Below the pieces are notes generated by a model. That model saw only the letters and a list, made by a program, of their open reading frames with translations. It ran no database searches and was not told the origin of the DNA. A stretch of 59,236 nucleotides of DNA from an uncultured Christensenella sp. Its GTDB lineage: Bacteria; Bacillota; Clostridia; Christensenellales; DTU072. The stretch lies in NCBI GenBank assembly GCA_964368435.1, contig CAYJBS010000002.1, positions 1 through 59,236 on the forward strand. Reading direction: 5' to 3'. A program made the translations under genes and the position numbers. Shown here piece by piece: positions 9,332 to 51,457 of this stretch. Position 1 is the first letter of the stretch, and each line of letters starts with the position of its first letter.

Positions 9332-9367
9332 TGATAAATTACTCCGCGATAGAATTTGTGTTAACAT

Positions 9368-31600: not shown

Positions 31601-34600
31601 ACAAGTTGCCATCGTTGACGTTTATGCGGGCAAATCTCTTGCCTGTCTTCCAGTTGCTGATGGTCACTTGCAATTCGATATCTTTGAAGCTCATCAAGTT
31701 TATGTTGGCTTTTACGTCGATCTCGAAAACCATATTCTGATCGTTCCAAACAGTCAGAATAATCGATTGAATAACCTCGCTCAAGCCTTGATTGTCAAGC
31801 AAACTCTTCAGCGGCTCTTTTATGAACTGCCTCTCGGTTACCATGCCGGCTTCCAATTCGATAAGAATTTTTGTGCTGACACCTATTATAGGCACTGTAT
31901 TTCTGATTTCTATGAAGGTCTCTGACGGTGGCGCAAACTCATGGCTGGCGCCGTCGACATCTATTTCGAAATCGTCTCTTAGTTTCAAGTGCAGTCTTAT
32001 GCCGTCGCCGGTGGGAATATAGTTCTCATCGACTGCATTAAAGGATATTTCGATGTTCAATAAACCGTCTTTGAAGACGCCGACATCGATGTTCAGTTCG
32101 CCCACCGAATCCATTGCGCCGGTCAAATCAATGCCCAGCAAATTGAGAATGGCAAGCACAGCCGCGCTACCTACATGCGCCGCAAGTCCTGTTTGGTCAA
32201 GCGTCACATCTATCGGCGCTCTGCTGCCTGACGCGTTCAGCGCATAATTGCTATAAGCGTTGAAGAGCCCTGCATCAAGCTGTTTGTTGGCTGATGATGA
32301 AGGAGTTACGGTTGTGCCCAGTGCGGAGAATATCGATTGGAAATAATCCATTGCGTCTACGATATGCGCGCGCTGAATATTGAAGGCTTCCATATCGAGA
32401 AATATGTCGCCGTTTATATACAATATACTAAACACATATTCGTCTGACCTTGTGAGCACCTCATTGCCCAATTCGTCTGTTACGTATTTCATCGTGTACA
32501 GCGAGAGGTTGAGGTCGGACTTCATAATATCGGTTATGTTGATGCTGCCTTCCAGCTCCAAGCGGAAATAGCTGCCTATCTGCTCAAGCACCTTCAATAC
32601 AGGCACTATGCTCATTCCAAGGTCAAGATAAAAATCTTGCGTACCGATAAAGGTCTCGATTAAATTCGAGAAGTCATATTGTGACAATTCGTCGGCCTCC
32701 CAGCCGAAATCCACTGCAAGCTTGACATAGATTGACGCAATATTCTCATCGATAGTTTTGTAGTCTTCTTTTATGAAGTTTTCGGGCAAACTGATGTTGA
32801 GTTCGCTGAAGCCCGGTTTGATACTGTTTATGGACAGGTCAAGTCCAAAATTCGCGACATCAAGTTCCACACCGAGAATCCTGTCGCCGTTAAGCAATGA
32901 TGCTTCGATTTTGGCGTTCTGTCGGGCGGCAGCCATGATAATGTTGTGCATTTCAGAATATGCGTTGACATAGATTTCCGCAAGGCGAAGTTGTTCGTCC
33001 CGCGCGACTTTTATTCTTGTCCATGCGCCGCCTTCGTCAGGACGCAAAATATAAGATACCAATTCGCCGTTTTCGGTAATGCTGTTTAGTACAGCGGCGT
33101 CTATTTCTTCATTATAGAAAGTCCAGCCCGAAGCGGCTCTTCTCGGAGCAGTGTTCAAGAGCAACACGCCGTCGATGAATTGTGACATCCTTTCGCGACC
33201 GGTTTCGTCGGCTCTCAAATAAAGTATTTCCCAAGCCCAAATTCTGTAATAGGCTGTCCAAATTTCGGGCATTCCATACAGAGTTTTGCGGAGTATCGCC
33301 TCGTTGTAGATGAGGTTCAGATTGTTGATATCTGTTTGTTTCTCTACATAGAGTTGTGTCCACGCTTCTTCTCTTATGCCGGCATCGGTGAGTCCGGAAT
33401 TTGTGGCTTTTATGGAATTATAGAGGGTGTCAAGTTTTGTTTTGGTCGTAGGACTGCCGGTATACATTTCGTAATAACCCGTCCAGCTTCTCGATCTTAT
33501 GACCGACAGCGATTCCAAAGGATATCTCTGCTGCATCTCTTCGAAGAGTTTGTCCATTTCTGTCTTGGAATTCAAAGCGTTGTTGTACCATCTTTCCCAG
33601 GCTACCGACTTGAATTGCATATTCAAGACAACGTCAAGTTCTTGCAGACTTCTGTTCTCTATTTCGTTCTTGGAAAGTTTTGCGGTATATGTTGCGATGT
33701 CGTTTTGGAGGTCATTGTAGATATCGTTCCAAACCATAACTTTGGCGCGTTCGTCGGAAATCGAAATGTCCGCCGATCTTATTGCGGCAACCCTGCGGTC
33801 AAGCGCCGTTCTTTGTGCGCCGGAGCTTTGTTGCCACAACTCGTCATATGCCCACAGCTCTGTGTTATCGGCATTCAGCTCCCCGGCTTCTTCGAGATAT
33901 CTGTCCATTCTGGAAAGGTCGAATCTGGCAAGTCCCAGCGCCGTATCTCTTTCTTTTTCCATGTTCAGTTGAACCATGTCGCTCCACGCGCGGTTCATAA
34001 GACTTGTTTCGTCATTGAATATCGATTCAAGCAACAATGTAATAACGCCGGTCGCCGCCGTCATAACAAAGCCTTCGTCCTGACCAAGCAGAGCCATTAT
34101 ATATTCCTTGGCTCCCGTATCGGGCGCGTTTTGGAGAGAAGAGTTCATTGCCTGCGAACGCAGCGCTGCAAGTGCGGTCAATTCGGTGAGGCTGACGTTG
34201 TTGGCTTGACTGATTTCCGCACTGCTCGAGAACAGCTTGCTGATGATGTTTATGGCATTGGGTATTCTTATTTTGCCTGCATTTATGGCGCTGGCATCGA
34301 TATATGCGGTGGTAATGGTCTCTCCGAACAAATCGAGTTCTTGGAGAAGATAAATGCCGAACAGCACTTTTCCTTTGCTGTTGGTCGCTTCAAGCAGAAT
34401 CTGCAAGCCCGAAAGGTCGCCGTTGAGCAACTTCCAGATATTTACGACGGCTTCCAGTTCGAACGTAATGGTCTCTTCGAGATCCGACAGCGTTCTTATG
34501 ATGACATCAAATCCCAGCGAATCGTTGCTCAAAAGGTCCGCCAACAAATCGCCTAAATAAATGCTGTCAGTGCCCGTCGCCGTACCTGCCGCAAGATTCA

Positions 34601-37600
34601 TCTGTCCTTCCAAAGCTATTTTGAAAGTACTCCATTCGTCGTCTATTTCGAAATATTTTGCTTCGTTTATTGTCATAGGCAACGGATTGGTAATATCAAT
34701 AGACGGTATATCTATGGAGAAATTGAAGCCGAGAATCTTTTCGAATTCAAGGTTTAGGTTGAGTAGTTTGTTGTCTCCGAACAGTCCCAATTCTGCCGAC
34801 GGATGGTATCCTCCTTCTGCGAGGAATGCCTCCAAATCAAAGCCCAACGAGGCTATTACACCATAAATGGCTCCGGCTGTAAGCTCGAAGATGATGGGCG
34901 AAGTAGCTATTGTTTCGTCGCTGGCGATGCTGAGCAGAATTCTCGAAGCAAGCAGCGCTGTGCTGTTGTCGGCGGCGCTCAACGGTGAAGAAAGTTCTTT
35001 GCCACTGTTCTGCGGCAAGATGCTTTCAGGGGAACCGGTAAAGCCGGCAATAATATTTTTGACGTCTCTTATTACGATAGGCTCGATTCCCAACACTCTG
35101 AGGTCGAGATAGGCGTCTGCAATGCCGTCGTCGTCTATTACTATATATAAGGATAGAATATCGCCGAGAATGAAATCGCCCGCTTCTCCATATGCCGTTT
35201 CCCAGGAAAGGGCTTTGAGTCTGGCGTCGTCGGGCAGATAATTGTATTCCAAACGCAATCTGTTGAATACTTCTTCTATTCTTTCTCTTTCTGTCAAATT
35301 GTTGCTGGTTGTGATGAAGCTATAGTATGCGTCCCAAGCGTCAGCTGCAAGCGCACCGCTGCCAAGTGAAGCGTATGTGTTTTCCATTCTCGAGCGGTTC
35401 AGTACATTGACTTCACTGTGATAGCTGTCATAAGCTTCTTTGGAAGTCAAATTGAAATACAATTCGAGGTTTCGCAAATCCGCGATGGAAAGCAAGTCAA
35501 TATTTGCCGACAGGTCGAAATATACTTCCAGTCCGTATATGTTCTCGATGATGCTGAAAATAAGACCGATATCGGGATTTCTTTGCAGCCAGAAATTCGT
35601 AAACATATTGACCAAATAGTCGAACTGATAGCCTTCGTCGGGAGTTTCGAGCGAAAGGTCGAGTTTGCCGCTGAAACTTATGCTTATTCTTTCGAAATTG
35701 CTTATGTTGGCATACTGGCTTTCGTCGGGCACGGCTATCTTGTCGGTGAATCCGACGTCAAGACCGCCTAAACGCAAGCCCAAATTGACGTCATAATCGG
35801 TACGGTCGCCGCGTTCATAGATGAGATTGCCGTATTCGTCTCTTTGCTCAAGTATGTTGAAGAACACCTCTGCTTCGACGGCTATGGGATTAAGCGCCAA
35901 CGTAACATTTGCGCCAAAATCCAATTCACTGAAATAAGGAGTGATGTCTACACCAAGGAACCCTATTACGTTCATTATGGCAGCCTTTGCAAGCGCCACT
36001 GTGAAACCGCCGTCGAAGAACATAAAGTCAAGGTAGGTTTTTATGTCTTCTACAGCATAAGACGGGGCGGAGTTTTGGGGTTGGGCTGCATCTTCGGGCA
36101 ACAGCACCGTGAACAAATCCTGCCAATAGGTGATTATGTTTTCGATATTTTCGAGTTTTACTTTGCCTATGTCGAACAATTCTGTGTCAATATAGACATC
36201 TGCGCCGTTATAGACGGCTCTTATGACGAGTTTTTGTTCGCCGCTGCCGTCATCGCTTGTGATTTCTATGCTGAAGTTGCTCTTCAAGAGGTCTGCAAAG
36301 AATATGTAGCCCTCTATTTTGAAGTTCAGCGAGACATTGGATTGACCGTTGAAAACTATTTCGGTGTCTATGCCCATTCTGTCGAGGTTTAGTAATGATG
36401 CGCTTGAAATAAGTTTGTCCCAAGCTCTGGCAAACTTCTCATTGTCGGTGACGTTCTCTTCCTTTTCGGCGATCTCTTCGACAACCAAAGTCAATCTGGT
36501 ATCCATCTCGACTCTCTGTTGAACTGTTAAGGAGCCGGTATACAATCTGTCCCACGCCTCACGCTTCAGCTCTTCGTCTTTCAGTTCCGTCTCATCTTTT
36601 ACGATATCGATAAACTCTCTCAGTTCTTTCTTGTCAAAAGGTGAAACTGCCAAAAACTCTTGCAGCAGCGGAGTAAATGTAAACAGGTTTTTGCCTTCGC
36701 TGTTTATGGGATTATTGATGAAGAACAAACTTCCCTCAACCTTGACATATATGGCTTCGGGAATGCCGTTGGCGGTGCCTTCTGCATAGTCTATTTTTTG
36801 CGGAACTTCAATAACATGCCTGTCTTCTTCAAGCACTCCGAAAGAGAAGTTGCCGATATGCGCTTCAAGTAAAAAGACGTCTGCGCCTGTGCTGAGGTCT
36901 ATACCGAAATTCTCTCCGAGCATAAGGGCAAGATAAGTTTCGCGGATAGTCACCGGCAAATTGAGTTCCAGCATCTGGAGCAGGTTGTTCATAACCTCAG
37001 AAGAGATGTTGATTGAAAGCTTGTCGTTGCCAAACCACATTTGGAGCAGTATTGCCGTCGGGTTGTTGTAGGAGGCATTCAGGATATAATCCTTTGATGC
37101 CTGAAGAATTTTGTTAAAGTCCGCAGCGTTGTCGGGGGCAAGATTGCTGATGTCGCCCTGTTGTTTGTAGAGCGCAAGCGCCAGCATGTCTATGTCATTG
37201 CGGTCAAAATGATTGTAGATCCTTGCTTTTGCTTCGTTCAAATAGGCTTCTTCGACGAGCTGTCGATTGGTGCTCAAGTATGACGCTACACGCGCGTTTA
37301 TTTGTTCGTTGTTTTCGCCGGGATATTGTGCCCTGAATTCAGCTCTCCAGTGGTCTTGAAGCAAGCTGAGCGCATTCTTCCTTGCGACTTCAGGCATAAT
37401 CTCTTTTGTTCTGAGATACAAGCTTTCCAGCAACTCGTCATAAAGGGCGTCGAGTACAACTTTTGTTTGGGGGCTTGCCGAAGCATAAAGACCTCTCCAA
37501 GTCTCGGCATCGACAGACACTTTTTCTTTGTAGATGTTCCAAGACGAATACTTGATTCTGTTGCTAGGATCGGATGTATCGAGCCGCGGATTGCCTGTTT

Positions 37601-40600
37601 TGGTATCAATAATGGTGCGTCCGTTCAGCTTGTTGACAATTTCGTTGAGTTGTAAACGTAGTCTGTCCCACGCTTGAGCTTGTTGTTTGTATTTGGGGAA
37701 AGTGGGATAAAGATTGGTGACATAATTAAGCGCTGCGTTTGCTATGGCAAACTCATCCGTCAAGTCGGAATATTCGTCATTCTTTTGGTTCAGCAGTTGC
37801 TGTGCCGCCAGTATTTCTTCGAAAGCGCCGTCTCCATCGCTGATGTAATCTTCAAGATCGCTTATTTCTTCAATCAATATATCTTTTGCTTGCGTACCCG
37901 CAGAATAATAATTTGTCCAGAAAATAGATTTCTTGCGGTCGGAATCCTTGCAGATGGCGTCCCAAGACATGGACTGCGCCTTGATGATGATGTTTGCCAG
38001 CTGTGTTCCTTCAGGCTCATAGTTTTGGTCTTCTTTCAAATCACGTTGGCGCTGAACAAGCTCGTCTTTGTACTTCTGGAACATATCGTTCAAATAGCTT
38101 TTTTCGGCAGTCTCCGAGGTGTCTGAATTCAGCTTGTTCCAGGCAATGGCTTTCGACTCGTCATCGCTCTGCATGATTGCTTGCACTATGTCGTCCATGG
38201 CGCGGCGCTGAAGTTCCATGCCGGCAAGGTATTTTTTGTCCCATTGCATCGCAAACAACTGGTGAAGCGTGCCTTCCACGTCGGTCAAAGCAATTTTCGG
38301 CAGTCCAAAGTGCGAAAGGTCGACATAAGCCTCGTTGTTGATGAGGTATACGGCAAGGAAAATCCCATAGGTCTTGCCATCAATATCAGAAGTGTGTCCG
38401 TTGGCGCCGACTTCGTTGTCTCTGTCATAAATGACTATGGCAAGTTCACTGTCTAAAATATTTAAGATACTTATATTACCTTTTATTGAGTATCCAATAT
38501 TAATGCTGAGTTCACCCAAAGAGAATCTGACGGCAAGACTCTTGACAAGTTGCCCCATGAAACTCGACGGATCGCCGCCCGAATATAAGCGGTCGAACAG
38601 ACCGTTCAGGAAATTGTTTTCGTAAACCTCGGTGCCATCGGGCTTAAGAGAAATATATCCCTCACTGGCGACAGAAATCTTTAGGCTTTCTGCCCAATAT
38701 TTTATGTTTTTGTATTCTTCTACTTTGTGTCCTGTGACCAGCGTATTTCTGCCAATCTTTACGTATAAATCTCTGATGAAATTCAAATCGAGAGTTATCG
38801 CTTCTATTTGGGCATTTCCGGAATCGAGGATACCCATATGGATTTGAATATAATCACCCGTTGCTTTATAGAGCTGTAATTTTATGTGGGCATTGACTTC
38901 GGGCGCTGTCATATTGGTGCCGAGGAATTGAAGCAGTACCGTAAGCAGCTGCGCGCTGACCAATATTTTTATGGATTCAGTAGGTTCTTCTTCGTTGTCT
39001 CTTCCGATGATGATTTCGGAGATTATGGAACCTATGAGTCCCATCATATCCATAGGATCATCTGCCTCAAGCTCAATCTGATCGCCTGCGGCATTGTAAT
39101 ATTCCGCCATGGCGGCGTTGTTCGCTTCGCCCATACCCGAAAGTAGATTGCGGATGCCGACATTCTCCATTTTTAGTTTCGGCAACTCGGCAATGATGTT
39201 GAGCATCGGCAGTTTGCGTTTCAAAACGCCAAGCTGTGAAAGATCGAGATAGAGCGTGTCTTCGCTTCCGACATAATAAACAGTCAGGAAAGCTTCCCTT
39301 TTATGCAAGTCGTCTGCCGGCAAATAAACCATCAAAGCAAGCTCGATATTGCTGAAAGTAACGATATTCAGGTTGGCTTTTATGTCGTATTCGAGATCAA
39401 GACTGCCCGTCTCGTCTATGCCCAAATTGAGCATAACATTCTCTATGATGCCTCCGACTATGCCCGACAAATCGATGCCGTCGCCTGAGGGGAAGGTAGC
39501 GTTTGTGCCTACCGAAATCTCGCCTGAAATATTTATGTTGTAGACGGCAACGTCGTTTACGTCGGTATAATCGCCGTATTTTCCTTCGATCTCGGACAAA
39601 TCAAATTCGGGGAAGGTGAAATAAGTGATACCTTTGACTTTTACGCCGTCGTAGTTTTCGCCGCCGAGATGCACGCCCAGAGCAATATCCTCGGTCACTT
39701 GTATGTCGAGAGCAATGCTGTCAAAAATATTTGCTAAATCAAGTTTCAGGGAAGCGCCTTCAAATCCAAAATCGGCGCCTTCGAGGAACAATCCCAGCAC
39801 TTCGTTGAGTCCTGCTTTGTCGAAAGCAAGCGTCAGCTTCTTTGTGCCCGGCTCTGCCGTCAAGTTCTTAGTGAGGATGTCAAGGATTTTGGCAAAATCC
39901 AATCCGCCCTCCTCCTCATCGCCATCGGCGTTTTGGGGTTCGATCGGTTCGACATAAGCAGGATTGACGTAGGGCATAATGCTGCCTAAAATATCTTCAA
40001 ACAGCACGCCTTGCAGGTCTATGCCGCCTATACTTATATTGGGGATTATGACATCTTTTTTGCCGTCGCTTCTTATTCCTTTGAGGGCAGACAAATCCAA
40101 ATAAAGCACATTGTTTACGACGGCAGCGCCTATCGCAATGGCATTGGGGTCAGGCAATAAATAGCCTCTGATGAATTGTTCACCATTGAAGGTCATCAAA
40201 ATTTCGGCTTTTGTGTTGCGGTTGTCGAACATATCGAGAGCCGCCTTGACATTTATGTCAAAACGATATTCGCTCTGTTCTTTGAACTTCAGAGGAATGT
40301 CGCCTACGGCGCCGAGGTCAACGAAGTCACCCAGCACCGTTCTCAACGTCAATTCCGAATTGGCTTCGTTTTTGATGAATAGAGCGGCGTTTAGTTCGAC
40401 ATTGCCCAAACTGCCTCTCGTATAAGTGGTGTCCTGACCGCCTGCGCCCAACGATAAGTTGGCGAAGGATATGGCAACGGTCTTTTCGTTTGAGGCTTTT
40501 ATGGAAATAGGTGTTATGCGGATATCAAGGTCATACCCGTCTTCAATCTCGGGACAAGTGACACGCATGCCCATACCTGAGAATACATAGTCGTCTTTCT

Positions 40601-41583: not shown

Positions 41584-41608
41584 AAAAAGGGCATAGTACG
41601 CCCTTTTC
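41584..41608 (-). terminator. Terminator-like hairpin in the 5' leader of the giant gene; it could also terminate the upstream PIG-L operon
   Basis: Minus strand GAAAAGGGC-GTACTAT-GCCCTTTTTC. It has the same A-tract / short GC stem / T-tract design as the terminators at 645-669 and 59206-59231. It lies downstream of the predicted promoter (41627-41655) and 50 nt upstream of the ATG. Confidence 0.5.
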
Positions 41609-41626
41609 ATATAAGCCACTACAATA

Positions 41627-41655
41627 ATTATACTCACGAGCTTTTTTAATGTCAA
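41627..41655 (-). promoter_or_regulatory. Perfect-consensus sigma-A promoter upstream of the giant gene
   Basis: Minus strand TTGACA (41650-41655), exactly 17 nt (TTAAAAAAGCTCGTGAG), TATAAT (41627-41632). Predicted TSS near 41620. Confidence 0.6.
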
Positions 41656-41793: not shown

Positions 41794-42594
41794 TCACAGC
41801 AACAATTGGTTCTTGAAACCTTCTATTTTGTCCTCAACGAACTGTCGAAGTGTGGTGTTTTTGTCGGACAAAAGCGGTAATAAATCGATACCGAAGCTGA
41901 CCAGCTCCGCAGTATTGACTGCATGAGAACGGCTGAAAGTGGCATTGGCAAGCCGTCTTCCTTGAATCGCCAAATCGTATCTCTTGCCGCCTTTTACTTG
42001 CGACTTATGGACGGCTATCAAACGGCGCAACAGTCGTTTGTATCCCGAAAGGTCAAACAGCGCCTTGTCCTCGTCGTTCAGCCAGTCGAGATCTCGCCAA
42101 CATTCGCAACCGAAAAAGCTGCGCGGCTTATAATCCGGAAGCGCGCGCAAAGCGTTCAAGACGCTTTTGGCTACATTGACATGGGTGTTGTGTTTGTCGG
42201 CGGGGTTGTGGGTATATATCGTGTCGGGACAAAACTCCTTGGCGATCTCTTGTATGTCGGCAATCAAACCTTTGTTTTCATCGTTTATTTCGGCGCTGGG
42301 ATAATTTAGAAATATCAGAGTAGCATACCGCCCTATTTTTGCGGCGCTTATCTGCTCCTTTCTTCGTTGCTCTACCATCTGTTCGTCGGTGAAATCGGCA
42401 TATTTGCCGTTGCGCGGACTGCCCGAGCCGTTGCTGACAATAACAGCTACAAGCCCTTTTTTTTCGTCGTCATAACATTGCACAATGCCGTCTCCGCACA
42501 TAATCTCGGCATCGTCCTGATGCGCGGCGAAAACCAAATGGGTATAAATGTTTTTTTTGCCTCGAATGACTTCGGCTCTTTTGTTTAGTTGCAT
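41794..42594 (-). CDS. PIG-L family deacetylase (LmbE-like N-acetylglucosaminyl deacetylase)
   Basis: LVFAAHQDDAEI (AHPDDE-type zinc-binding motif) and THNPADKHNTHV (HPDH-type motif). The ATG at 42594 has an AAGAGGA RBS 5 nt upstream. The ORF-track start at 42621 is a GTG that overlaps the upstream gene by 16 nt. No signal peptide. Confidence 0.85.
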   Translation of the reverse strand: MQLNKRAEVIRGKKNIYTHLVFAAHQDDAEIMCGDGIVQCYDDEKKGLVAVIVSNGSGSPRNGKYADFTDEQMVEQRRKEQISAAKIGRYATLIFLNYPSAEINDENKGLIADIQEIAKEFCPDTIYTHNPADKHNTHVNVAKSVLNALRALPDYKPRSFFGCECWRDLDWLNDEDKALFDLSGYKRLLRRLIAVHKSQVKGGKRYDLAIQGRRLANATFSRSHAVNTAELVSFGIDLLPLLSDKNTTLRQFVEDKIEGFKNQLLL

Positions 42595-42605: not shown

Positions 42606-43448
42606 TTATTCCAGTTTCCACATTTCCGTCATTTCTATGCTACCGCCGCGCGCAACGGTACGAATAGGCGACAGACTTTCTATTTCGTGTATGCGATCGG
42701 AAACATAGCTTTCAAAGTTGCAATGAAAGTCGGGATACTCGCCGTCCTTGTCTCCAAAAAATTGCTTTGTGAACATTTGGGAGCCTATGGTGTAGACTGC
42801 TCTTATTTCCTCTTTATAGAGTCCCACTTTCAGCGGTTTGGAAACCTTTTCTGTGCTTTTAAGGACAAGCTTGTTGTTGAACAATTCCAGTCTTTCGTCT
42901 TTGATATCGGAATAATGCCAAAGCGCAAGATTGCGGTTTGCAAGGTATCCGGTGTCTTTTTCTTCAAGATAAAGTTCCATCTTTCCGCCGGACTTCAGCA
43001 CCGTCAAGCCCCAAAGACACAGCCTTTTTTCTTCGCCGTTGTTGACAAATTTATGTGTAACTTCAAGAGTTTTTTCACCTGTAAAAACTATTTTTATAGA
43101 AGGAACAAGATGGCTTTCTTTGCGTTCTTCGGTCGACAATATGACTCCGCCATCTATCTTTTCGACGGTTATTTCGTCATTGTCGGGATAATAAGTGCTT
43201 TCGTCTTCGGGCGACAGCCAAAGGCGGTGACCGCCGAAGATATGCCACTTTTTGCCCTCTCCGTATACGGCGGAAACGTCTTTCGAAACGGCGTCTTCAA
43301 TGTCATTATAAAAAATATTGGCGCCGCCTACCTTGTTCAGCGCGATTATTCTCGGTCCGACTTTCAACGGTATGGTGAACTCGATAAAGCCGTTGCTTAC
43401 CTTCAAAGCGTCGCCAAGAAAGCATTGTGTGTTGCTATATTCAATCAT
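42606..43448 (-). CDS. DUF4380-like / aldose-1-epimerase-like beta-sandwich protein (cytoplasmic)
   Basis: 280-aa all-beta-looking protein with FGGHRLWLSPE, which I recall as characteristic of DUF4380 (from memory, not searched). Its ATG overlaps the stop of the upstream gene as ATGA (43445-43448). Confidence 0.7.
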   Translation of the reverse strand: MIEYSNTQCFLGDALKVSNGFIEFTIPLKVGPRIIALNKVGGANIFYNDIEDAVSKDVSAVYGEGKKWHIFGGHRLWLSPEDESTYYPDNDEITVEKIDGGVILSTEERKESHLVPSIKIVFTGEKTLEVTHKFVNNGEEKRLCLWGLTVLKSGGKMELYLEEKDTGYLANRNLALWHYSDIKDERLELFNNKLVLKSTEKVSKPLKVGLYKEEIRAVYTIGSQMFTKQFFGDKDGEYPDFHCNFESYVSDRIHEIESLSPIRTVARGGSIEMTEMWKLE

Positions 43449-46400
43449 AAAGTCCCTCTTATTATTATATATTGTACTATATCGCCCTTGACAATAACAT
43501 TGCTCCCATGACGTTTCGTTTCCACATGTTCTTTTAGTGTGCCGGAGTAGTCATAATAAGCAATGACAAACTCCTCATAAACATGACCACTCGACGGAAT
43601 TTGATCAATGAATGTGTCGAATTCCGCTTCCGTTTCAAAATACAAATCTATCGTTTCGTCATCGTCATCGTTATCGTAGTCAAAGAAATAATATGAGCGT
43701 TCCGACGCAACTACCGGCGCCTCGCCGTCAAAAGTATGGGACGACTGCATATCTTCGTCTGCCGCCAAAAAGTAATAATGGTTTGAGGCTATGATAATAT
43801 CTTGAGTTCCGGTGACTTTTGAATGCAATCTGCCCCAAGTGGCGTCCACATAGTACCAGGCGCCCTCAAGCATGATTGCGTTCCAGGCGTGGTTGACATC
43901 TCCTTTGCCGTTGTTGTTGTTTCCCGCGCCGCTAAGACGAATGACTGTCAGATCCTCTATGGCGCAAAGCAGCGTAAACGCCTTGCTGATGCCGTCACAA
44001 ACGGCTATCTTATTAAGTATTGCGCCTTCGAGATGGAAACTTTGTTTTCGGCTCATATCAAGGTTTATGGTGTCTATCTGCTCTTTTGTAGTTGCTTCAG
44101 CCATCCGTTGCATATAACTGTTATAAACCTCCTCGTCATATGCGACGTTTATGCAAAGCCAGTCGTATATCGCCAGCGCTTTTTCGGAATCGCTCATTTC
44201 AGGCAATATGATTTCGTTCAAAATGGCTCTTGCTGCTTCATAAATCTCTTCTGCTACGCTGCCGACAACGGGATCAGGCCGGTATCCCCAAAGCGCGGCA
44301 AGATACAGCTGCGCGCTGGTAGAAACAGCAAGCGTTCTGTCGTTTTCTAAAATTGGTTCCTTGCCCGGCACTCTGTCGGTATCCGACAGTGAGTCGGAAT
44401 ATCTCGGCTCATAAAGTCTGCTATCGTTCTCGCCGTTATAAGTCGAGCCTTGATCTATTGCCACTGCCTCATCGGGTTTCAAATTAATTGTGACATCGCC
44501 ACCGGTATGCTCAGAAAAAACCATGCTTGTTCCGGGGCCCTCACCATAAGCATTGTTGGCGGCGGTAATAAGCTTGTGAGCGTTTATCAGAACTTCTTCA
44601 GTTTGACTGCCTTGTGTAATGTTGCCGGTTCTTTCATAAAGTGACTGTTCAATATCAGTCTCGTAGTCGATGGCAAAATATAAATCTATATCATATCCTT
44701 CTTCGTCGTCACCAAGCTCTGTCGGGCGAAAGACTTTTATGTAGTTCAATATCTTGCCCAGTTGATAAACGCTGTTTATGTAACGATTCATGCTTGTTCC
44801 GGGTATTTCTTCGAGGTAAGGATATTGCTCCGGATTTATCTTTTTATTTTTTTCACTTCCATAGGAACGGAAGCCGGTATACAAGTCGGAAATATCGGTT
44901 TTTATGCGGTAGTCAAAATTATCGTTCAGCGTGACATCCGAATGCGGCACACGAAAACGATCTGCCGAAAAATCGGCTGAATGGTCTGTGCTATTATAAG
45001 CAAGCGTTTGGGTACCCTTTTTGATTTCTACGGTGTACGAAACACCTTCTTTCAACTTATGCCAAGTGATGAGCGGCGCGTAATTCGTTCCATCGTAGTA
45101 GCCGTTTACCTTGATATCATAAAGCTCGTGGGTGACATTGTCTTTTATGCTGATGATATGCGACTGCTGCCGTTCGACAGGATCGCCGTTATAGCTCAAA
45201 GTACCGACAATCCTGTAGTCGCCGGCAGCGATAAAGGTGTAAGTATCGCCTGTGTGGAACAGATCTTCTCCGACGGGATGCACCGCCCATATCACTTGCG
45301 TGTTTTGAAGCTGTGTATCATAAGCAAGCTGTACCTCGGCGTTCACCTCGTATTCTTTTTTAAGTCCGACTATATCAAAACAGCTTTGCAGCGTCACCGT
45401 CTTTTTTATTATGATTGGCGTTCCGCTGAGTGTAACCTCGGCTTTTACGGTGTACGCTCCTGCGGTCTGGGGAGGGAGCATTTCAAAAGTGTACTCTGTT
45501 GTTTGACCAACTAATGCATTGTCCTTGTACCACTTGATTGAGTCTACATCTTCCAATTCTGTATCGAGACTGAAAAGTATGTCCTCTGCAGTCTGAATGG
45601 GTTGCGTCAGTGGTTTTGAGTGTGTTATCACCTCTTGTATCATCAAAGGCAAAACGCTTATTTCGATGTCGGCAGAAACCTCGGGATTGCTTTTTGAGCG
45701 CACCGTGACAATCACGGGGGATGTCGTTGCCGCAACAGGCGTCACCAAGCCGTTGTTGCCTATCGTGATAAAAGCCTCTCCGCCTTCTGCGATTTCGTAA
45801 GTGACGCTCTTGTCGGCGGTATTCGTCGGCGCAATGGCGTGCGTAATAACATAATAGTCAGTTTGGTCAAGCAGTAGCGTCACCGCATCGTCGCCCAACG
45901 TCATCGCTACCGCTTGTATCGGCGGAGCCTCAACCTCTACTCTTACGGTCTTGGTAACCGATGAGAGCGCTCCGTCTATTTTGGCGTTAAAACGATACTC
46001 TATATTACCCGACTGCTCCGGCATCTTTATTTTATAAAAAGTTATGCCCTGCTCTAGTTCGATTTTGAAATCATCTTCGCCCAATGCTACATAGCCTTCA
46101 CCGACTTTTATTGCCGCTTCGTAGCTGTCCGCCTTTTGCATGCCGGCGTATTCTATGCATTGAAAGCTTACCCAGTCGCCATATGTATAAGCTCTTTTGC
46201 TCCATATGCCTTCATCGTTTATTCTGTCGACATACCCGACATAAAAATCTGTTAGTGCGTACTTCGGACGGCTGTTATTTATGCGTACATACAAGTTAGC
46301 CACTACTTCGCCGTTGTCGTCGCTGCTGATGTGAATGACATAAGGCTCATGACCGGGGATATAGTTCTTTGCTATAATTACTTTTGTTTCATCTATTTCT

Positions 46401-46933
46401 ATACTAGGATCATTTATCCCCTGATAGCTCAGCCCTTTTTCGGTGGCATTTGCCGGGAAATAAACTATTTCGAGGTCATTCAATGCAAAACTGTTGGCGG
46501 AGGCATCGCCATAATATAAATCTATGACATTGTTCTTTATCAGAATATTTTCTACAGGTATCGGATCGGACACCAAAAAATCAACATTGACGGCATTCGC
46601 CGATTGTTCCATGTTGTCGGTGACTGCTACAACTTTTATGGTGTATGTACCGAATTGCGGAAAGTCCAGCGTAAAGGAATCCTCGGCAGAAATCTCCTTC
46701 TTCCAACGCTCAAAATCGCTATCGTCTGTTTTTTTATAGACATTATAGCCTTGCGGACTGCCCAAGGTCTCAATAATTTGTATAATTACGCTTTCGTTTT
46801 GGTCATAACGCTCTTTCAATGTGTTAATTTGTAATTTGAAGCCTTCAAACCTGTCTCCGTTGCTGCAGGCACTCATAGCTATTGCAAGCAATAAAATAAC
46901 AGATAGAGCTAAAAAAAGTCTGGTTTTCTTCAT
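43445..46933 (-). CDS. Big_2 + transglutaminase-like (Cys-His-Asp) lipoprotein, ~1,162 aa
   Basis: MKKTRLFLALSVILLLAIAMSAC signal peptide with lipobox. The start at 46933 has a GGAG RBS 6 nt upstream; the ORF-track alternative is 46945. Big_2-like segments are present (…VYFPANATEKGLSYQ…). The C-terminal TGase core is AVC983DGISKAFTLLC…NH1019AWNAIMLEGAWYYVD1034ATW. The Cys codon is TGT at 43997-43999. Confidence 0.88.
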   Translation of the reverse strand: MKKTRLFLALSVILLLAIAMSACSNGDRFEGFKLQINTLKERYDQNESVIIQIIETLGSPQGYNVYKKTDDSDFERWKKEISAEDSFTLDFPQFGTYTIKVVAVTDNMEQSANAVNVDFLVSDPIPVENILIKNNVIDLYYGDASANSFALNDLEIVYFPANATEKGLSYQGINDPSIEIDETKVIIAKNYIPGHEPYVIHISSDDNGEVVANLYVRINNSRPKYALTDFYVGYVDRINDEGIWSKRAYTYGDWVSFQCIEYAGMQKADSYEAAIKVGEGYVALGEDDFKIELEQGITFYKIKMPEQSGNIEYRFNAKIDGALSSVTKTVRVEVEAPPIQAVAMTLGDDAVTLLLDQTDYYVITHAIAPTNTADKSVTYEIAEGGEAFITIGNNGLVTPVAATTSPVIVTVRSKSNPEVSADIEISVLPLMIQEVITHSKPLTQPIQTAEDILFSLDTELEDVDSIKWYKDNALVGQTTEYTFEMLPPQTAGAYTVKAEVTLSGTPIIIKKTVTLQSCFDIVGLKKEYEVNAEVQLAYDTQLQNTQVIWAVHPVGEDLFHTGDTYTFIAAGDYRIVGTLSYNGDPVERQQSHIISIKDNVTHELYDIKVNGYYDGTNYAPLITWHKLKEGVSYTVEIKKGTQTLAYNSTDHSADFSADRFRVPHSDVTLNDNFDYRIKTDISDLYTGFRSYGSEKNKKINPEQYPYLEEIPGTSMNRYINSVYQLGKILNYIKVFRPTELGDDEEGYDIDLYFAIDYETDIEQSLYERTGNITQGSQTEEVLINAHKLITAANNAYGEGPGTSMVFSEHTGGDVTINLKPDEAVAIDQGSTYNGENDSRLYEPRYSDSLSDTDRVPGKEPILENDRTLAVSTSAQLYLAALWGYRPDPVVGSVAEEIYEAARAILNEIILPEMSDSEKALAIYDWLCINVAYDEEVYNSYMQRMAEATTKEQIDTINLDMSRKQSFHLEGAILNKIAVCDGISKAFTLLCAIEDLTVIRLSGAGNNNNGKGDVNHAWNAIMLEGAWYYVDATWGRLHSKVTGTQDIIIASNHYYFLAADEDMQSSHTFDGEAPVVASERSYYFFDYDNDDDDETIDLYFETEAEFDTFIDQIPSSGHVYEEFVIAYYDYSGTLKEHVETKRHGSNVIVKGDIVQYIIIRGTL

Positions 46934-46946
46934 AATATTCTCCATG

Positions 46947-49900
46947 TTAACGGGGAGACGACAGTATTACAACAAAATATCTGTCGGTTATTTGTAACAA
47001 CTCTTTGACGGTTGTCCCACTGTCACTCAAGGCGTTTTGCAGCTGATCGATAACAACATCTTTTAGTTCTGCTTGCGTGTCGAACTCTTGCGAAAATTCC
47101 AACCCAAAGGAATAAACCGTCTGCGTCATGCTGTATAGATAAGAACGTGCGGCAAGCTCTATTGCCGCCTCATTTTCGACAAGCGAGGAGCCTTCGATCT
47201 CGAACGTTCCATCGGTTGTTGCGGCAGGATGAATGCCGAAGAACTTATAACCGCAAGCTATCATATATTCGTCGTCGCGGAGGAAATATGCATGATTTAT
47301 GGCGACGCCGTCTATTCTCTCGACTCTGGCAAGAAAACTGTCGACATTGTACCAACTTTCTCCGATAAGAACCTTGTTCCAACTGTGTTCAACATTGTTG
47401 CGTTGTCCCAAAACAGTGTTTACGGTGATGCCTTCCATCCAGCATAACAGACTGAAAGCCTTGCTGACGCCTTGGCTGACTGCGTTTTTGGTCAGTAGCG
47501 CGCCCTCAAGATGATAACCTTCGAAAAGATATAGGTCAGCGGGTTTTGGCGTGGTTTTGCCGTATTGTATCAGCGCCTTGTCACTGCTGATGTGGCTTGC
47601 CAAATAATCGTTTATGGCAAGCACTTTTTCGAAATCAGTCATACCGTCGATTATTATGTCTTTCAAAATAACTGTCGCTTCGTTATAGACTGCCTCGGCA
47701 GGACTGCCTTTGATAGGGACGGCTCTCTTGCCCATGCTAACGGCATGGAAAAGCTGATCGGTGGTCTCGGCATTTATGGTGTTTTTCGTGTTTATGGCGA
47801 AGTCGTCGAATGTTTCGATTCTGCCATTGGCGGCATAGTTCTGTTTAAATTCGTACGGCTGTTTGTTGGTTGGGGGCTGACTGATATAGCCCTCTTCTCT
47901 TATGGTCAGCGTAATGCCGAAGCTGCCGTCTATTTGGGAATAGGAGAAATCCAAAGCAGTAATCTCTGTAAAGCAATAGGCGTTTATGGCGGCAGTAACC
48001 AAATTATAGATATTCAACAAATATTCGTTGTCGTACGGGTTTTCTCCGATGATGGGGAACAAATCTTTGTTTATGTTGCGGTATGCCTGTTTGGTGAAAA
48101 TATCTATCTTGAATGTTGCGTTGCCGTTCTCGGCGCTCTGCAACAAATCTGCCGGCTTGTATGAAGTGATATAGTTCAGCAGTTCGCCCATTTCGTACAT
48201 ATCATTTATGTAGCGATTTATGCTGAAATTCAGATATGGAAGGAAGGCATACTGATTTTGGGTAATTGTCCTTGCGGTGTATGAAACCTTGTCACAATAT
48301 ACTCCGCCTTTTTGTTTTATTCGGACAGAGAAATTCTGTTCAAGCGTAGCCATACTAAGCGGCAGAATGATGCTGTAATCACTAAAGACTATTCCTCTGA
48401 TGTCATACCGCGCCTCTTGGGTGTCAATGATATATATCTGATTTTCGTTGACAACCTCGATGACAAAGCTGTTGACGCCCCCCAGTTGGTTCCATTTTAT
48501 GACAGGTCTATATTCGGTATCTACTTTTGCTCCGTCGATAATAAGATATTCTATGTTGGAATCGCCGACCTTGTCCCAAACGCGGAAAGGAGTGGTATAG
48601 CGCACCATCTCTCTCTTTTCGCCGCTGACCGTTTCATATACGGGCAAGCCTTCCAGCGTAGGCGAACCGCTTATGATATACCAACCCTCGACAGTCGCCT
48701 CATAGTTGAAGGTGTTGTTGTTCGTTGAAGTAAATAAGAAGTTCTCGTCCGTACGGATTTTGTTTATGATGCCGTCCTCAAAATTGTCGGCGCCTGCGAC
48801 AGGATCGTACCTGTGGAGATACCAGTCATAGCTGTCGGGAACCTTCTCTTCTATGCCCGTTTGTGGATAGACCTGCACCCTGTCTCCTATGACATATTTT
48901 ATGACAGAGAACTCAAACTCAATCGATGCGGCTATGGTATCTTGGGTTTTGCCTTTTGCCGTCAAAACAAATGAGCCGTAATCCAAAGGAGTAAATTTTA
49001 GTTTGCCATTATGGACGGCATGAAGCGTATTGGCAACAAAATTGCCGTCGCCGCTCTCTCCCTTCCTTTTCAGATACCAGTCATAGCTGTCGGCGCTGTT
49101 CGCCATCAGCGGCTCAAAAGTCAACTCCTCTCCGAAGATATAGATATTGCCTTCCGGCTCGTTCTTGTGCAGTTCAAAGCCTGTGAACGGCATATATAGC
49201 GATATCGAGGGAGAAGTCAAATAAATAGTATCTTCATTTTTCGGGGTGATTTGTACCGTAATGGTATATGTAGAACGTGTGCTGTCGACGCTGGGCAGAT
49301 ACTCGAATTCCCATTCGCCGTCCTGCTCCTGTACTCTTTTGCCGGCGACAAGCCATTTTATGTCGGGATTGGGGTCACTCAACTTGTCAAGTTGCTGAAT
49401 ACTAAAAGTAATCTTCTCCGGGTTTCCGACAACTTGATCGAACTTCGGCGAAGCGTCGAGAACATCAAGACGATAGTTGCCCTCGGCATAGCCGATTCTC
49501 ACTTGCACTCTGCCTTCAAGTGTTTTGCCGGCAAGCGTGCTGCTCTTTGCGATGATGGTGACAATGCCCGGTTTCAAAACAGACAAAAGCCCCGAAGAGT
49601 TTACGGTGGCTATTTCGAGGTTTTGGGAGGTGTATGTGACATCCCTGCCGTCCTGTCCGTGATATGGTTTGAACACTAAATCCAATTGTACCGGCTCGCT
49701 GGGAAAAGACACTCTCATTTCCGGAGAAGAAAAGTTTATTTCTTCGACTTCGGTATTCTCTATGATTACTGAAATGATGGTGTATGCCTCGGGATTCGTT
49801 GAGCTGAAGATTTTTATTGGGACACTGTCGATATCATCCATAACCTTCTTTGCGACGATAAATCCGCTCTGGTCTACAGAAAAATAATCCAATGCGTCAG

Positions 49901-50141
49901 GAGTGGCATAATATACAAGTTTTTTGTTGGTGGCATTTGCGGGAACCAGCGTCGGAGTAAGTTGATAGGTGCCGGTTGTGCCGTGAGAAGACAAATATAC
50001 TATTGAGTTGGGTACGCGCACGCCGGTGGCTTCGACATAGTTTTCATCGCTGCGAGGGTCGCTTTCAGGTATGCATGAATAAAAAACCGCCATAAGCAGC
50101 AGTGTTACAATGATAATCAACGCCCTTCTTGTGTTTTTCAT
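46947..50141 (-). CDS. Big_2 + transglutaminase-like paralog with Ser replacing the nucleophile Cys, ~1,064 aa
   Basis: MKNTRRALIIIVTLLLMAVFYSC is a signal peptide with a possible, atypical lipobox. The start at 50141 is preferred over 50189. Two clear Big_2 segments (LVPANATNKKLVYYATPD…; DVTYTSQNLEIATVNSSGLLSVLKPGIVTIIA). The core is AVS905QGVSKAFSLLC…EHSWNKVLIGESWYNVDSF. The Ser codon is AGC at 47475-47477. The stop is 1 nt from the ORF-track start of the next gene. Confidence 0.88.
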   Translation of the reverse strand: MKNTRRALIIIVTLLLMAVFYSCIPESDPRSDENYVEATGVRVPNSIVYLSSHGTTGTYQLTPTLVPANATNKKLVYYATPDALDYFSVDQSGFIVAKKVMDDIDSVPIKIFSSTNPEAYTIISVIIENTEVEEINFSSPEMRVSFPSEPVQLDLVFKPYHGQDGRDVTYTSQNLEIATVNSSGLLSVLKPGIVTIIAKSSTLAGKTLEGRVQVRIGYAEGNYRLDVLDASPKFDQVVGNPEKITFSIQQLDKLSDPNPDIKWLVAGKRVQEQDGEWEFEYLPSVDSTRSTYTITVQITPKNEDTIYLTSPSISLYMPFTGFELHKNEPEGNIYIFGEELTFEPLMANSADSYDWYLKRKGESGDGNFVANTLHAVHNGKLKFTPLDYGSFVLTAKGKTQDTIAASIEFEFSVIKYVIGDRVQVYPQTGIEEKVPDSYDWYLHRYDPVAGADNFEDGIINKIRTDENFLFTSTNNNTFNYEATVEGWYIISGSPTLEGLPVYETVSGEKREMVRYTTPFRVWDKVGDSNIEYLIIDGAKVDTEYRPVIKWNQLGGVNSFVIEVVNENQIYIIDTQEARYDIRGIVFSDYSIILPLSMATLEQNFSVRIKQKGGVYCDKVSYTARTITQNQYAFLPYLNFSINRYINDMYEMGELLNYITSYKPADLLQSAENGNATFKIDIFTKQAYRNINKDLFPIIGENPYDNEYLLNIYNLVTAAINAYCFTEITALDFSYSQIDGSFGITLTIREEGYISQPPTNKQPYEFKQNYAANGRIETFDDFAINTKNTINAETTDQLFHAVSMGKRAVPIKGSPAEAVYNEATVILKDIIIDGMTDFEKVLAINDYLASHISSDKALIQYGKTTPKPADLYLFEGYHLEGALLTKNAVSQGVSKAFSLLCWMEGITVNTVLGQRNNVEHSWNKVLIGESWYNVDSFLARVERIDGVAINHAYFLRDDEYMIACGYKFFGIHPAATTDGTFEIEGSSLVENEAAIELAARSYLYSMTQTVYSFGLEFSQEFDTQAELKDVVIDQLQNALSDSGTTVKELLQITDRYFVVILSSPR

Positions 50142-50170
50142 GTCGCTCCAATAAAAATTATCGTATATAT

Positions 50171-50199
50171 ATAATAAAACTTTTAACAACTCTTGTCAA
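50171..50199 (-). promoter_or_regulatory. Sigma-A-type promoter of the transglutaminase-like / PIG-L operon
   Basis: Minus strand TTGACA (50194-50199), 17 nt spacer, TATTAT (50171-50176), about 30 nt upstream of the ATG at 50141. Confidence 0.5.
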
Positions 50200-50269: not shown

Positions 50270-50686
50270 ATGTATAAGAACTATGTACCCGTTTTCGGAG
50301 AAAAAATTGACAAAAAGGATTTGATACAACTCAATCCGCTTGTGTTGTCCTTTGTCGGCGACAGCGTGCAGACGCTTTATGTCCGCACAAAGTTGGGGCT
50401 CAACCGACTGCAAAAGACAGGCGCGCTGCATTTATTGACCAGTAAAGAAATAAATGCCGTCAGTCAATCCGAAGCAATGAAAAAAATAATGGATGTTTTG
50501 ACCGAGGAAGAAACGGACATTTTCAAAAGAGCGCGCAACGCAAAGACGCCCAACACCGCAAAACACGCCAGTCCGATAGATTATCATATAGCCAGCGGCT
50601 TTGAAGCCTTGCTGGGATATCTGTATCTATTACAAAGAAGTGACAGAATCGCCGAACTTATCGAAATTGCTTACGACGAACAGTAA
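50270..50686 (+). CDS. mrnC: Mini-ribonuclease III
   Basis: LNPLVLSFVGDSVQTLYVR and RARNAKTPNTAKHASPIDYHIASGFEALLGYLYL match the MrnC signature (compare B. subtilis LAYIGDA… / RGRNAKS…STAFEALLGYL). The true start is Met48 of the ORF-track ORF. Confidence 0.9.
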   Translation: MYKNYVPVFGEKIDKKDLIQLNPLVLSFVGDSVQTLYVRTKLGLNRLQKTGALHLLTSKEINAVSQSEAMKKIMDVLTEEETDIFKRARNAKTPNTAKHASPIDYHIASGFEALLGYLYLLQRSDRIAELIEIAYDEQ

Positions 50687-50701
50687 CCTATATCCAAAAC
50701 T

Positions 50702-51457
50702 ATGGATACCCAAACCACAACAATAGGAGATTTGATTATTATGATATTGGAAGGAAGAAACGCTCTTAACGAAGCGCTGAAAGGCAACATTACTCTCGAG
50801 AAGGTGCTGGTACAATCGGACCACAACCCAAGCCTGGGAAGAATAATTGCCGAAATAAAAGAACGCAAAATAAAGCTGTCCTATGTCGAAAAAAGCGTAC
50901 TCGACAAATACAGCGACACAAAAAGCCATCAAGGCATAGTGGCGTTTGCCACTGATTTTCAGTATTCAGAATTGGAAGATGTTCTCAATGCCAACGAAGG
51001 CAACAAACTTATCATCATACTTGACGGCATAGAAGATCCGCACAACCTCGGTTCCATCGTAAGAATTGCCGACTCCGTAAATGCCAACGGCATAATAATT
51101 CCCCGCCACCGCTCCTGCGGTGTCACCGACACCGTCGTAAAAGTAAGTTCCGGCGCCACTGCGTATGTCAAGATAGCCAAGGTTGCCAACATAAACGACA
51201 CAATACGGCAACTGAAAGATATGGGCATATGGGTATTCGCCGCCGACATGGACGGCGAAAGCCTCTACAAAAGTGACTTGACCGGCAACGTAGCTTTAGT
51301 CATCGGCGGAGAGGGCAGCGGAGTACATTCGCTGACAAGCAAACTTGCCGACAGCATAATTTCACTGCCTCAGCTGGGAAAAATAAATTCGCTCAACGCT
51401 GCCGTAGCCACCGGCGCAATATTATATGAAGCCATAAGACAGAGAACACAAAAATGA
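50702..51457 (+). CDS. rlmB: 23S rRNA (guanosine-2'-O-)-methyltransferase, TrmH/SpoU family (RlmB)
   Basis: N-terminal EGRNALNEAL substrate-binding domain and SpoU motifs (LDGIEDPHNLGSIVRIAD, ALVIGGEGSG, LNAAVATGAILYE). Conserved position after mrnC. Alternative start ATG at 50741, with AGGAG 11 nt upstream. Confidence 0.9.
   Translation: MDTQTTTIGDLIIMILEGRNALNEALKGNITLEKVLVQSDHNPSLGRIIAEIKERKIKLSYVEKSVLDKYSDTKSHQGIVAFATDFQYSELEDVLNANEGNKLIIILDGIEDPHNLGSIVRIADSVNANGIIIPRHRSCGVTDTVVKVSSGATAYVKIAKVANINDTIRQLKDMGIWVFAADMDGESLYKSDLTGNVALVIGGEGSGVHSLTSKLADSIISLPQLGKINSLNAAVATGAILYEAIRQRTQK

Follow-up and report, generated by a model that had tools for sequence, protein, structure and literature searches.

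Two adjacent genes for transglutaminase-like lipoproteins, one with an intact Cys-His-Asp triad and the other with Ser at the position of the nucleophile Cys, lie on the minus strand of a contig from an uncultured Christensenella sp. (Christensenellales, DTU072; assembly GCA_964368435.1, contig CAYJBS010000002.1, positions 1-59,236; this whole stretch of 59,236 nucleotides is called the window). In the order of transcription, the gene with Ser (the Ser copy) is followed by the gene with Cys (the Cys copy), a gene for a mutarotase-like protein of 280 residues, a PIG-L gene, a gap of 259 bp and the open reading frame of a giant protein. The two paralogues and their catalytic positions are located as follows.

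46947..50141, minus strand: Ser copy, the upstream paralogue, a lipoprotein of 1064 residues with its likely start at ATG 50141 (open reading frame 46947..50189)
47475..47477, minus strand: AGC, the Ser codon at the nucleophile position of the Ser copy
47385..47387, minus strand: His codon of the Ser copy, retained
47340..47342, minus strand: Asp codon of the Ser copy, retained
43445..46945, minus strand: Cys copy, the downstream paralogue, a lipoprotein of 1166 residues
43997..43999, minus strand: TGT, the Cys983 codon of the Cys copy
43889..43891, minus strand: His1019 codon of the Cys copy
43844..43846, minus strand: Asp1034 codon of the Cys copy

The catalytic codons are exactly where an earlier reading of the sequence (the original prediction) had placed them. 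The Ser residue, which that reading numbered S905, carries this number when counted from TTG 50189 and is S889 from the likely start ATG 50141, which has a GGAG 6 nucleotides ahead of it. The Cys copy has 1162 residues when counted from its second ATG, as in P0001.

Comparison of the two copies by BLASTP showed 31% identity over 478 residues (E 5e-50), bearing out their description as tandem paralogues with a shared C-terminal module, which spans ~550 residues. The alignment pairs HLEGAILNKIAVCDGISKAF with HLEGALLTKNAVSQGVSKAF, placing Ser opposite Cys in an otherwise near-identical motif as originally predicted, and also pairs YINSVYQLGKILNYIKVF with YINDMYEMGELLNYITSY. The transglutaminase core expected in both copies was recovered in the Pfam scan (Transglut_core, PF01841) with 28.3 bits for the Cys copy and 28.9 bits for the Ser copy, both above the gathering score of 23. 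The Big_2 domains that had been assigned to both copies (PF02368, gathering score 22.8) were found in the Ser copy (32.3 bits) but fell below the threshold in the Cys copy (18.9 bits), although the modelled N-terminal half of the latter is entirely beta-sandwich. No Pfam family beyond PF01841 and Big_2 matched either copy at E <= 0.01. Inspection of the sequences for lipoprotein signals and lipoboxes showed a signal peptide and a lipobox Cys in both copies; the N-termini read ...LLAIAMSAC and ...LLMAVFYSC, orthologues have canonical LAAC and VSGC boxes, and the Cys is invariant in a 12-sequence alignment. Structures were modelled with AlphaFold for the Cys copy only. In the model of its N-terminal 600 residues, about six beta-sandwich domains come after a signal helix. 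The model of its C-terminal 561 residues (predicted local distance difference test score 72, predicted template-modelling score 0.80) runs from an FN3-like beta-sandwich through an alpha/beta domain and a disordered linker to a helical domain that holds the transglutaminase core, and ends in a small C-terminal domain. Both proteins are predicted to be membrane-tethered extracytoplasmic lipoproteins, in which an Ig-like stalk carries a C-terminal module with a transglutaminase/papain-fold core.

The Cys copy shows the canonical C...HxW...D motif order and the Cys-His-Asp triad of the PF01841 superfamily, and it agrees with the superfamily on every point compared. Because Ser holds the Cys position, the Ser copy departs from the triad at the nucleophile and is classed as a homologue of the superfamily rather than a canonical catalytic member. 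Both copies differ from the superfamily in that the core is part of the ~550-residue conserved module, the rest of which has no Pfam annotation, and in that this module stands behind a long Ig-like stalk on a lipoprotein. Cys983 aligns with the Cys of Streptococcus pyogenes TglA (PDB 9CRN, motif svCnGyaqaf), which is the only PDB sequence match of the Cys copy (E 1e-8); the PDB sequence search with the Ser copy returned no match. The top PDB matches of the Cys-copy core model in Foldseek are 9CRN (E 7e-10), 4XZ7 (9e-6), 3ISR and 3KD4. The entry 4XZ7 is named "TGase" and is presumably the Streptococcus suis surface transglutaminase, and 3ISR and 3KD4 are putative cysteine proteases. The closest matches in sequence and fold are thus the Gram-positive transglutaminase-like proteins TglA and 4XZ7. 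However, the identity is only ~12-15%, the template-modelling score normalised to 9CRN is 0.47, and these proteins are much shorter and have no Ig-like stalk. No function can be transferred from TglA, since the literature search found no paper on 9CRN/TglA. The MAG6410 family of Mycoplasma (NF045980) likewise comprises lipoproteins with a transglutaminase-related core, and it matches both copies locally (Cys copy, E 5e-20, 71.5 bits; Ser copy, 1e-9, 37 bits). However, these scores are far under the cut-off of 450 bits and only ~150 of the 622 profile positions are matched, so membership in this family is rejected. MAG6410 itself is a lipoprotein gene listed among the transposon mutants of a sheep-infection screen (PMC5073455).

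The genome scan yielded 232 related loci, of which 79 were kept. These come almost exclusively from metagenome-assembled genomes labelled Clostridia, Christensenellales, Christensenellaceae, "Candidatus Stercoripulliclostridium" and the like, and the samples were of gut, rumen and digester origin. Searched exhaustively as a profile, the C-terminal module gave 866 cluster representatives at E <= 1e-30, ~78 of them with the whole module. Word-index homologue searches returned only 6 and 8 matches, and a third search, based on the full-length alignment, was dominated by Big_2 proteins and brought in no further family members. Where source names were shown, the homologues carry only generic ones ("transglutaminase domain-containing protein", "Ig-like domain-containing protein", "hypothetical protein"). 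Alignment of the catalytic core across all family members in the fetched loci and the top 150 representatives showed the triad Cys-His-Asp (C-H-D; other triads are abbreviated likewise) in 88 of 100 domain instances from 88 loci and in 156 of 170 instances among the library representatives. The non-canonical triads are mostly those of upstream copies in tandem pairs, which account for all ten orthologous Ser instances and the upstream copy of locus L080 in the locus census and for 9 of the 14 non-canonical triads among the library representatives. The downstream copy is C-H-D in every orthologue examined.

Further comparison within the upstream copies showed a graded loss of the triad. All close orthologues of the Ser copy (68-84% identity; P0007-P0010, L001, L002/3/10, L009) share its S-H-D. 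One lineage further out (P0039; L004/5/6/11) has lost the His and is S-Q-D, and more distant relatives are S-Y-D (P0050), S-R-D (P0068), P-R-D (P0065) and P-T-N (P0076), so that Gln, Tyr, Arg or Thr occupies the His position in the sister lineages. The degenerate members lose flanking features as well, with CDG replaced by SQG, SAG or PEG and DATWG by DSFLA, DASKA and similar sequences. One member of the same clade, P0034, is still C-H-D and largely keeps these features (CEG, DATWG).

In a neighbour-joining tree built from the module with a single representative for each 50%-identity cluster (100 bootstraps), these ten upstream-copy members (P0034, P0007-10, P0039, P0050, P0068, P0065, P0076) fall into one clade in 100 of 100 replicates. 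Within it, the subclade of the window (S-H-D, S-Q-D and S-Y-D) has 100/100 support and P0034 as its sister, and the S-R-D, P-R-D and P-T-N members form a second subclade (98/100). The downstream copies form a clade of their own (93/100), in which all members are C-H-D. The nucleophile codon is AGC or AGT, one step from TGY, in all orthologues of the window subclade, TCC (Ser) or CCG (Pro) in the other subclade, and TGT at the P0034 locus (L094). Fixation of the Ser among orthologues, a check proposed with the original prediction, thus holds throughout the window subclade but not across the whole clade, where Cys and Pro also occur. Because AGC/AGT characterises one subclade and TCC, then CCG, the other, the codons indicate that the Cys was lost at least twice, by different routes.

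The upstream and downstream copies are sisters in 0 of 100 bootstrap replicates. Instead, the upstream clade groups (96/100) with a subfamily of mostly single-copy C-H-D lipoproteins of 1080-1135 residues, and the downstream clade groups with a single-copy type of ~1000 residues. A recent tandem duplication is therefore rejected as the origin of the pair; because the copies are never sister clades, the duplication behind it is judged to be old and the copies not to be nearest relatives. A type that survives singly keeps its triad, and the upstream-copy triad decays only where both types are present, with the single exception of P0163 (D-R-D). This solitary member (L092:2727-6134, L093:2768-6175) stands directly after an MFS_2 transporter gene, with neither an active paralogue nor a mutarotase-like or giant gene close by.

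Between the window and L001, the nonsynonymous divergence (dN) is 0.098 in the Ser copy against 0.185 in the Cys copy, with ratios to the synonymous divergence (dN/dS) of ~0.1 for both that are rough because dS is near saturation (~1 or more). The Ser copy is 84, 71 and 48% identical to its counterparts in L001, L002 and L004, and the Cys copy 71, 61 and 40%. At the protein level, the intact Cys copy has evolved about twice as fast as the Ser copy in these three comparisons. The Ser copy is thus under purifying selection and is not decaying as a gene.

The other genes of the transcription unit, and a promoter-like site ahead of it, are as follows.

42606..43448, minus strand: mutarotase-like gene, 280 residues, no signal peptide
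41794..42594, minus strand: PIG-L (LmbE-like) de-N-acetylase gene (Pfam PF02585, 77.7 bits; open reading frame to 42621), the last gene of the operon
50171..50199, minus strand: promoter-like site found by consensus scan, TTGACA-17-TATTAT, 11/12 matches, upstream of the Ser-copy start

One base separates the stop of the Ser copy from the ATG of the Cys copy, as the original prediction had stated. The stop of the Cys copy overlaps the ATG of the mutarotase-like gene as ATGA, and the likely PIG-L ATG (42594) is 9 nucleotides past the mutarotase-like stop. By this spacing (1-nt gap, ATGA overlap, 9-nt gap) the four genes are assigned to one operon, in which the ATGA overlap is predicted to couple translation of the mutarotase-like gene to that of the Cys copy. 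The promoter-like site, a consensus match only, probably drives the operon. The mutarotase-like protein matches the NCBIfam TTE1925-family mutarotase with an E of 4e-58, yet below the equivalog cut-off; its matches to DUF4380/DUF6786 are weak, and the PDB sequence search with it gave chance-level matches only. The PIG-L protein has the AHQDD metal-site motif. The literature search found no paper on TTE1925, on the present lipoprotein family or on bacterial transglutaminase pseudoenzymes.

Taken together, the pair probably consists of an intact enzyme, the Cys copy, and an old-duplicate pseudoenzyme with a non-catalytic role, the Ser copy, both encoded in one operon. The original prediction had offered an active enzyme with a pseudoenzyme as one of two options, and this option is favoured by the variable triad of the upstream copies, the invariant C-H-D of the downstream copies and the purifying selection. 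Because the triad is variable or degenerate across orthologues that are nevertheless under purifying selection, catalysis seems to be dispensable in the upstream lineage and the protein itself not, which is the signature of a pseudoenzyme. The S-H-D state in the window looks like an early stage of this decay series. The sequences show the paralogy, the residue states with their phylogenetic pattern, the selection, the packing of the operon and the synteny; from these we infer that the Cys copy is catalytically competent and that the Ser copy is its non-catalytic partner. Outside the cell, the Cys copy is predicted to attack an amide or isopeptide bond as a cysteine-dependent hydrolase or acyl-transferase. 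The Ser copy would have lost its nucleophile by a change from TGY to AGY, with its fold and the remaining protein kept by purifying selection, and would most likely bind the substrate, or act as an adaptor or regulator, in partnership with the active copy. Catalytically dead transglutaminase homologues are known, for example erythrocyte protein 4.2, as are pairs of a pseudoenzyme and an enzyme paralogue in general, and the Ser copy would resemble them in a retained fold that is conserved for a non-catalytic role. However, the presumed dead copy here belongs to the bacterial lipoproteins, its gene directly precedes that of the active paralogue within a single operon, and its triad decay can be traced stepwise across lineages.

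Several points weigh against this assignment. Ser, His and Asp are all still present in the upstream copy of this genome, so residual or altered catalysis is possible, and the retention of Ser across a deep subclade might mean that this residue is itself selected for. That the two copies are physical partners is purely inferred. The evidence on the lipoprotein family consists of sequences and predicted structures, all sequences are from metagenome assemblies, the tree is a neighbour-joining tree of cluster representatives, and the near-saturated dS makes the selection estimates rough.

The substrate has two candidates of about equal standing, the neighbouring giant lipoprotein and a glycoconjugate or cell-wall fragment bearing N-acetylglucosamine (GlcNAc) or glucosamine (GlcN). 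The original prediction had proposed that the giant lipoprotein could be processed, released or cross-linked by the pair. We regard such a specific action, by both copies or by the Cys copy alone, as possible but doubtful. The elements concerned are as follows.

13644..41534, minus strand: giant lipoprotein gene, 9296 residues, lipobox LISC
41627..41655, minus strand: sigma-70-type promoter in the 259-bp gap, a perfect TTGACA-17-TATAAT match
41584..41607, minus strand: stem-loop with a U-run, AAAAGGGCGTACTATGCCCTTTTT, between that promoter and the ribosome-binding site of the giant gene

All three proteins are predicted lipoproteins and would be located on the same membrane face. The giant protein has only two Flg_new repeats as Pfam matches and is rich in Leu, Ile and Ala, not in Thr, Ser and Gly. 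Its gene had been placed one 259-bp intergenic region downstream of the pair. However, this gap lies between the PIG-L gene and the giant gene, and the original prediction overlooked the two cytoplasmic-type genes, mutarotase-like and PIG-L, that intervene. The giant gene also has its own consensus promoter. The promoter hexamers are kept in L001, L002 and L004, with a similar TTGAC...TATAAT in L094, and the stem-loop and U-run are kept in L001, L002, L004 and L094 with base changes in the stem; both promoter and hairpin persist in loci whose proteins are only ~40-55% identical. Because of this conserved promoter, the sequence suggests that the giant gene is a separate transcription unit. The stem-loop, which like the rest of the window has no match in the Rfam scan, might stabilise the 28-kb mRNA at its 5' end, act as an attenuator or terminate the upstream operon.

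The synteny of the cassette, read from phmmer tables and gene calls of the loci, bears on the same proposal. The cassette is widespread in Christensenellales, with an ancestral arrangement of transglutaminase lipoprotein, mutarotase-like, ROK, PIG-L and giant genes; the pair clade has two transglutaminase genes and no ROK gene. Of the pair loci, 8 could be evaluated (the window, L001, L002, L004, L088, L090, L094 and L095), and a giant gene follows in all 8. Five of these (L004, L088, L090, L094 and L095) have a member of the upstream-copy clade directly upstream of a C-H-D paralogue, followed by PIG-L and the giant gene; the mutarotase-like gene stands between the C-H-D copy and PIG-L in the first four and is missing in L095. 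Two further loci end early, L089 (P0065) within the downstream copy and L091 too soon to judge. A giant homologue also follows in single-copy loci, where the transglutaminase identity can be as low as ~27-35%, but only in 14 of 21 evaluable cases. The giant homologues in these pair and single-copy loci match with E values of 1e-54 to 1e-150 over the first 1,300-2,300 residues available. The expected co-occurrence with the giant gene thus holds for the pairs and only partly for the single-copy relatives. Seven single-copy loci (L012, L013, L024, L042, L043, L007/L039 and L028) have the transglutaminase and mutarotase-like genes and no adjacent giant gene, and the mutarotase-like gene is a more constant neighbour of the full-length lipoprotein family than the giant gene. 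Co-location with the giant gene is, by these counts, conserved but not obligatory. In addition, a divergent housekeeping cluster (window 50270-52017, plus strand; mini-III RNase, SpoU-type rRNA methylase and a sigma-70-family factor) borders the cassette in nearly every Christensenellales locus and is as syntenic as the giant gene; it presumably resembles the Bacillus mrnC-rlmB-sigH region. This cluster is taken to mark positional orthology and warns against over-reading the synteny: because it is equally syntenic, part of the co-location of the giant gene is attributed to vertical inheritance, and much of the cassette synteny may have the same origin.

The proposal had drawn on LapG, which releases LapA, and on Tgl, as analogies. 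As family membership these did not hold, since PF01841 was the only catalytic Pfam family matched at E <= 0.01. The likeness to LapG/LapA is one of concept only: in both cases a cysteine enzyme of transglutaminase fold has its gene near that of a giant surface protein. No LapG-type family matched at that threshold, where PF01841 and Big_2 are the only families, and the scan of the window proteins, several smaller open reading frames excepted, showed no LapD-like c-di-GMP receptor, no type I secretion genes and no type I secreted adhesin with an N-terminal retention module; a LapG-type proteinase is rejected on these grounds. Unlike LapA, the giant protein starts with a lipoprotein signal peptide. 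The organism belongs to the Bacillota and is not known to have the periplasmic retention mechanism on which LapG acts.

The glycoconjugate candidate is suggested by the co-transcription of the mutarotase-like and PIG-L genes, together with the ROK, MFS_2, YdjC and GH18 genes of relatives. In its full form, the lipoproteins would be the extracellular arm of a pathway for harvesting or recycling GlcNAc glycoconjugates, in which a transglutaminase-fold amidase or peptidase frees a glycopeptide or muropeptide that is imported and then handled by the mutarotase-like and PIG-L proteins, joined by ROK in relatives. We hold this idea only tentatively and think it rather unlikely to be correct. The mutarotase-like gene is the most constant neighbour of the family and is ATGA-coupled here, and single-copy relatives have a gene for a ROK protein of 442-458 residues between the mutarotase-like and PIG-L genes. 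Scanning of a few neighbouring open reading frames showed an MFS_2 sugar transporter gene and a YdjC deacetylase gene upstream in L018 and an MFS_2 gene upstream in L013 and L092/L093, and in L012 and L013 a GH18 gene stands downstream in place of the giant gene. However, the cassette in the window has no transporter, ROK or glycoside hydrolase gene, PIG-L and the mutarotase-like protein are assigned at family level only, and nothing ties the lipoproteins to a glycan. A PNGase-like activity (Png1-type), considered in view of the GlcNAc-related neighbours, is not supported by the fold search, as no PNGase structure is among the top 50 Foldseek PDB hits of the Cys-copy core model, and the generic PF01841 match was the only one in sequence.

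The second option of the original prediction, that the Ser copy is a genuine Ser-His-Asp enzyme whose nucleophile was switched from Cys, is improbable. It would account for the His and Asp that the window and four closely related orthologue lineages (L001, L002/3/10, L009; P0007-P0010) still have, and for the presence of Ser, not a random residue, throughout a subclade with 100% support in a strongly conserved protein. However, the partner His is dispensable within the same Ser subclade, where it is replaced by Gln (P0039; L004/5/6/11) or Tyr (P0050), and the sister subclade is S-R-D, P-R-D and P-T-N, with Pro in place of Ser in two states. Also lost are the conserved D that follows the nucleophile (CDG to SQG) and the WG that follows the Asp (DATWG to DSFLA). 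Substitution of Cys by Ser normally abolishes or cripples the activity of papain-fold enzymes, which also counts against a working Ser nucleophile.

A surface-anchoring system in which PIG-L, the Cys copy, its dead partner and the giant protein cooperate is a still more remote idea. Cytoplasmic PIG-L could de-N-acetylate a GlcNAc glycolipid or wall polymer to expose free glucosamine amines, onto which the Cys copy, guided by the dead partner, could transamidate Gln side chains of the giant lipoprotein. The product could be a covalent protein-glycan anchor that is functionally reminiscent of glycosylphosphatidylinositol- or sortase-type attachment and chemically new. Finally, a sequencing or assembly error or a decaying pseudogene, conceivable for a metagenome-assembled contig with AGC one base from TGC, is refuted by the Ser (AGC/AGT) in independent assemblies from different samples (L001, L002/L003, L009, L004-L006/L011 and L095), by the intact open reading frame of 1064 residues and by a dN/dS of ~0.1 with a dN below that of the Cys copy.

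The assignment of an active enzyme with a pseudoenzyme partner is, as it stands, an evolutionary and genomic observation drawn from sequence comparison. Christensenellales are heritable, health-associated gut bacteria, and to our knowledge their cell surface is almost uncharacterised. The locus defines a conserved surface cassette beside one of the largest bacterial genes, and the literature searched assigns it no function. The upstream copies form an unusually clean natural series of active-site decay, from C-H-D through S-H-D, S-Q/Y/R-D and P-R-D to P-T-N, in which an intact paralogue accompanies the decaying copy in every case. Should the two proteins cooperate, they would provide a model of how active enzymes are aided by extracellular pseudoenzyme relatives; should the substrate be the giant protein or a polymer that bears glucosamine, the cassette would reveal how the surface of these bacteria is built or remodelled.

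Other arrangements were observed at related loci. A tandem pair of another, shorter subfamily (L080:8480-13481, uncultured Christensenellaceae) has an upstream S-E-D copy, with no significant Pfam Transglut_core match, and a downstream C-H-D copy, which suggests that tandems of a dead and an active copy arose more than once. The upstream S-Y-D copy at L095:9089-12247 is split into two open reading frames of 301 and 748 residues, and no mutarotase-like gene lies between the Cys copy and PIG-L; the two features may reflect further decay of the cassette or an assembly error. Elsewhere in the window, a second large open reading frame of 2020 residues (754-6816, minus strand) and two of 490 and 347 residues (7895-9367 and 10187-11230) have no Pfam match. 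At L007:9140-11266, PIG-L is followed not by the giant gene but by a GCS2-family (glutamate-cysteine-ligase-like) gene, which recalls low-molecular-weight thiol pathways. A few members (L049:299-3025, P0080 and P0089) are C-H-C, with Cys in place of the catalytic Asp, and some others of 1,800-2,050 residues, such as L058, P0056 and P0059, contain two complete C-H-D cores each.

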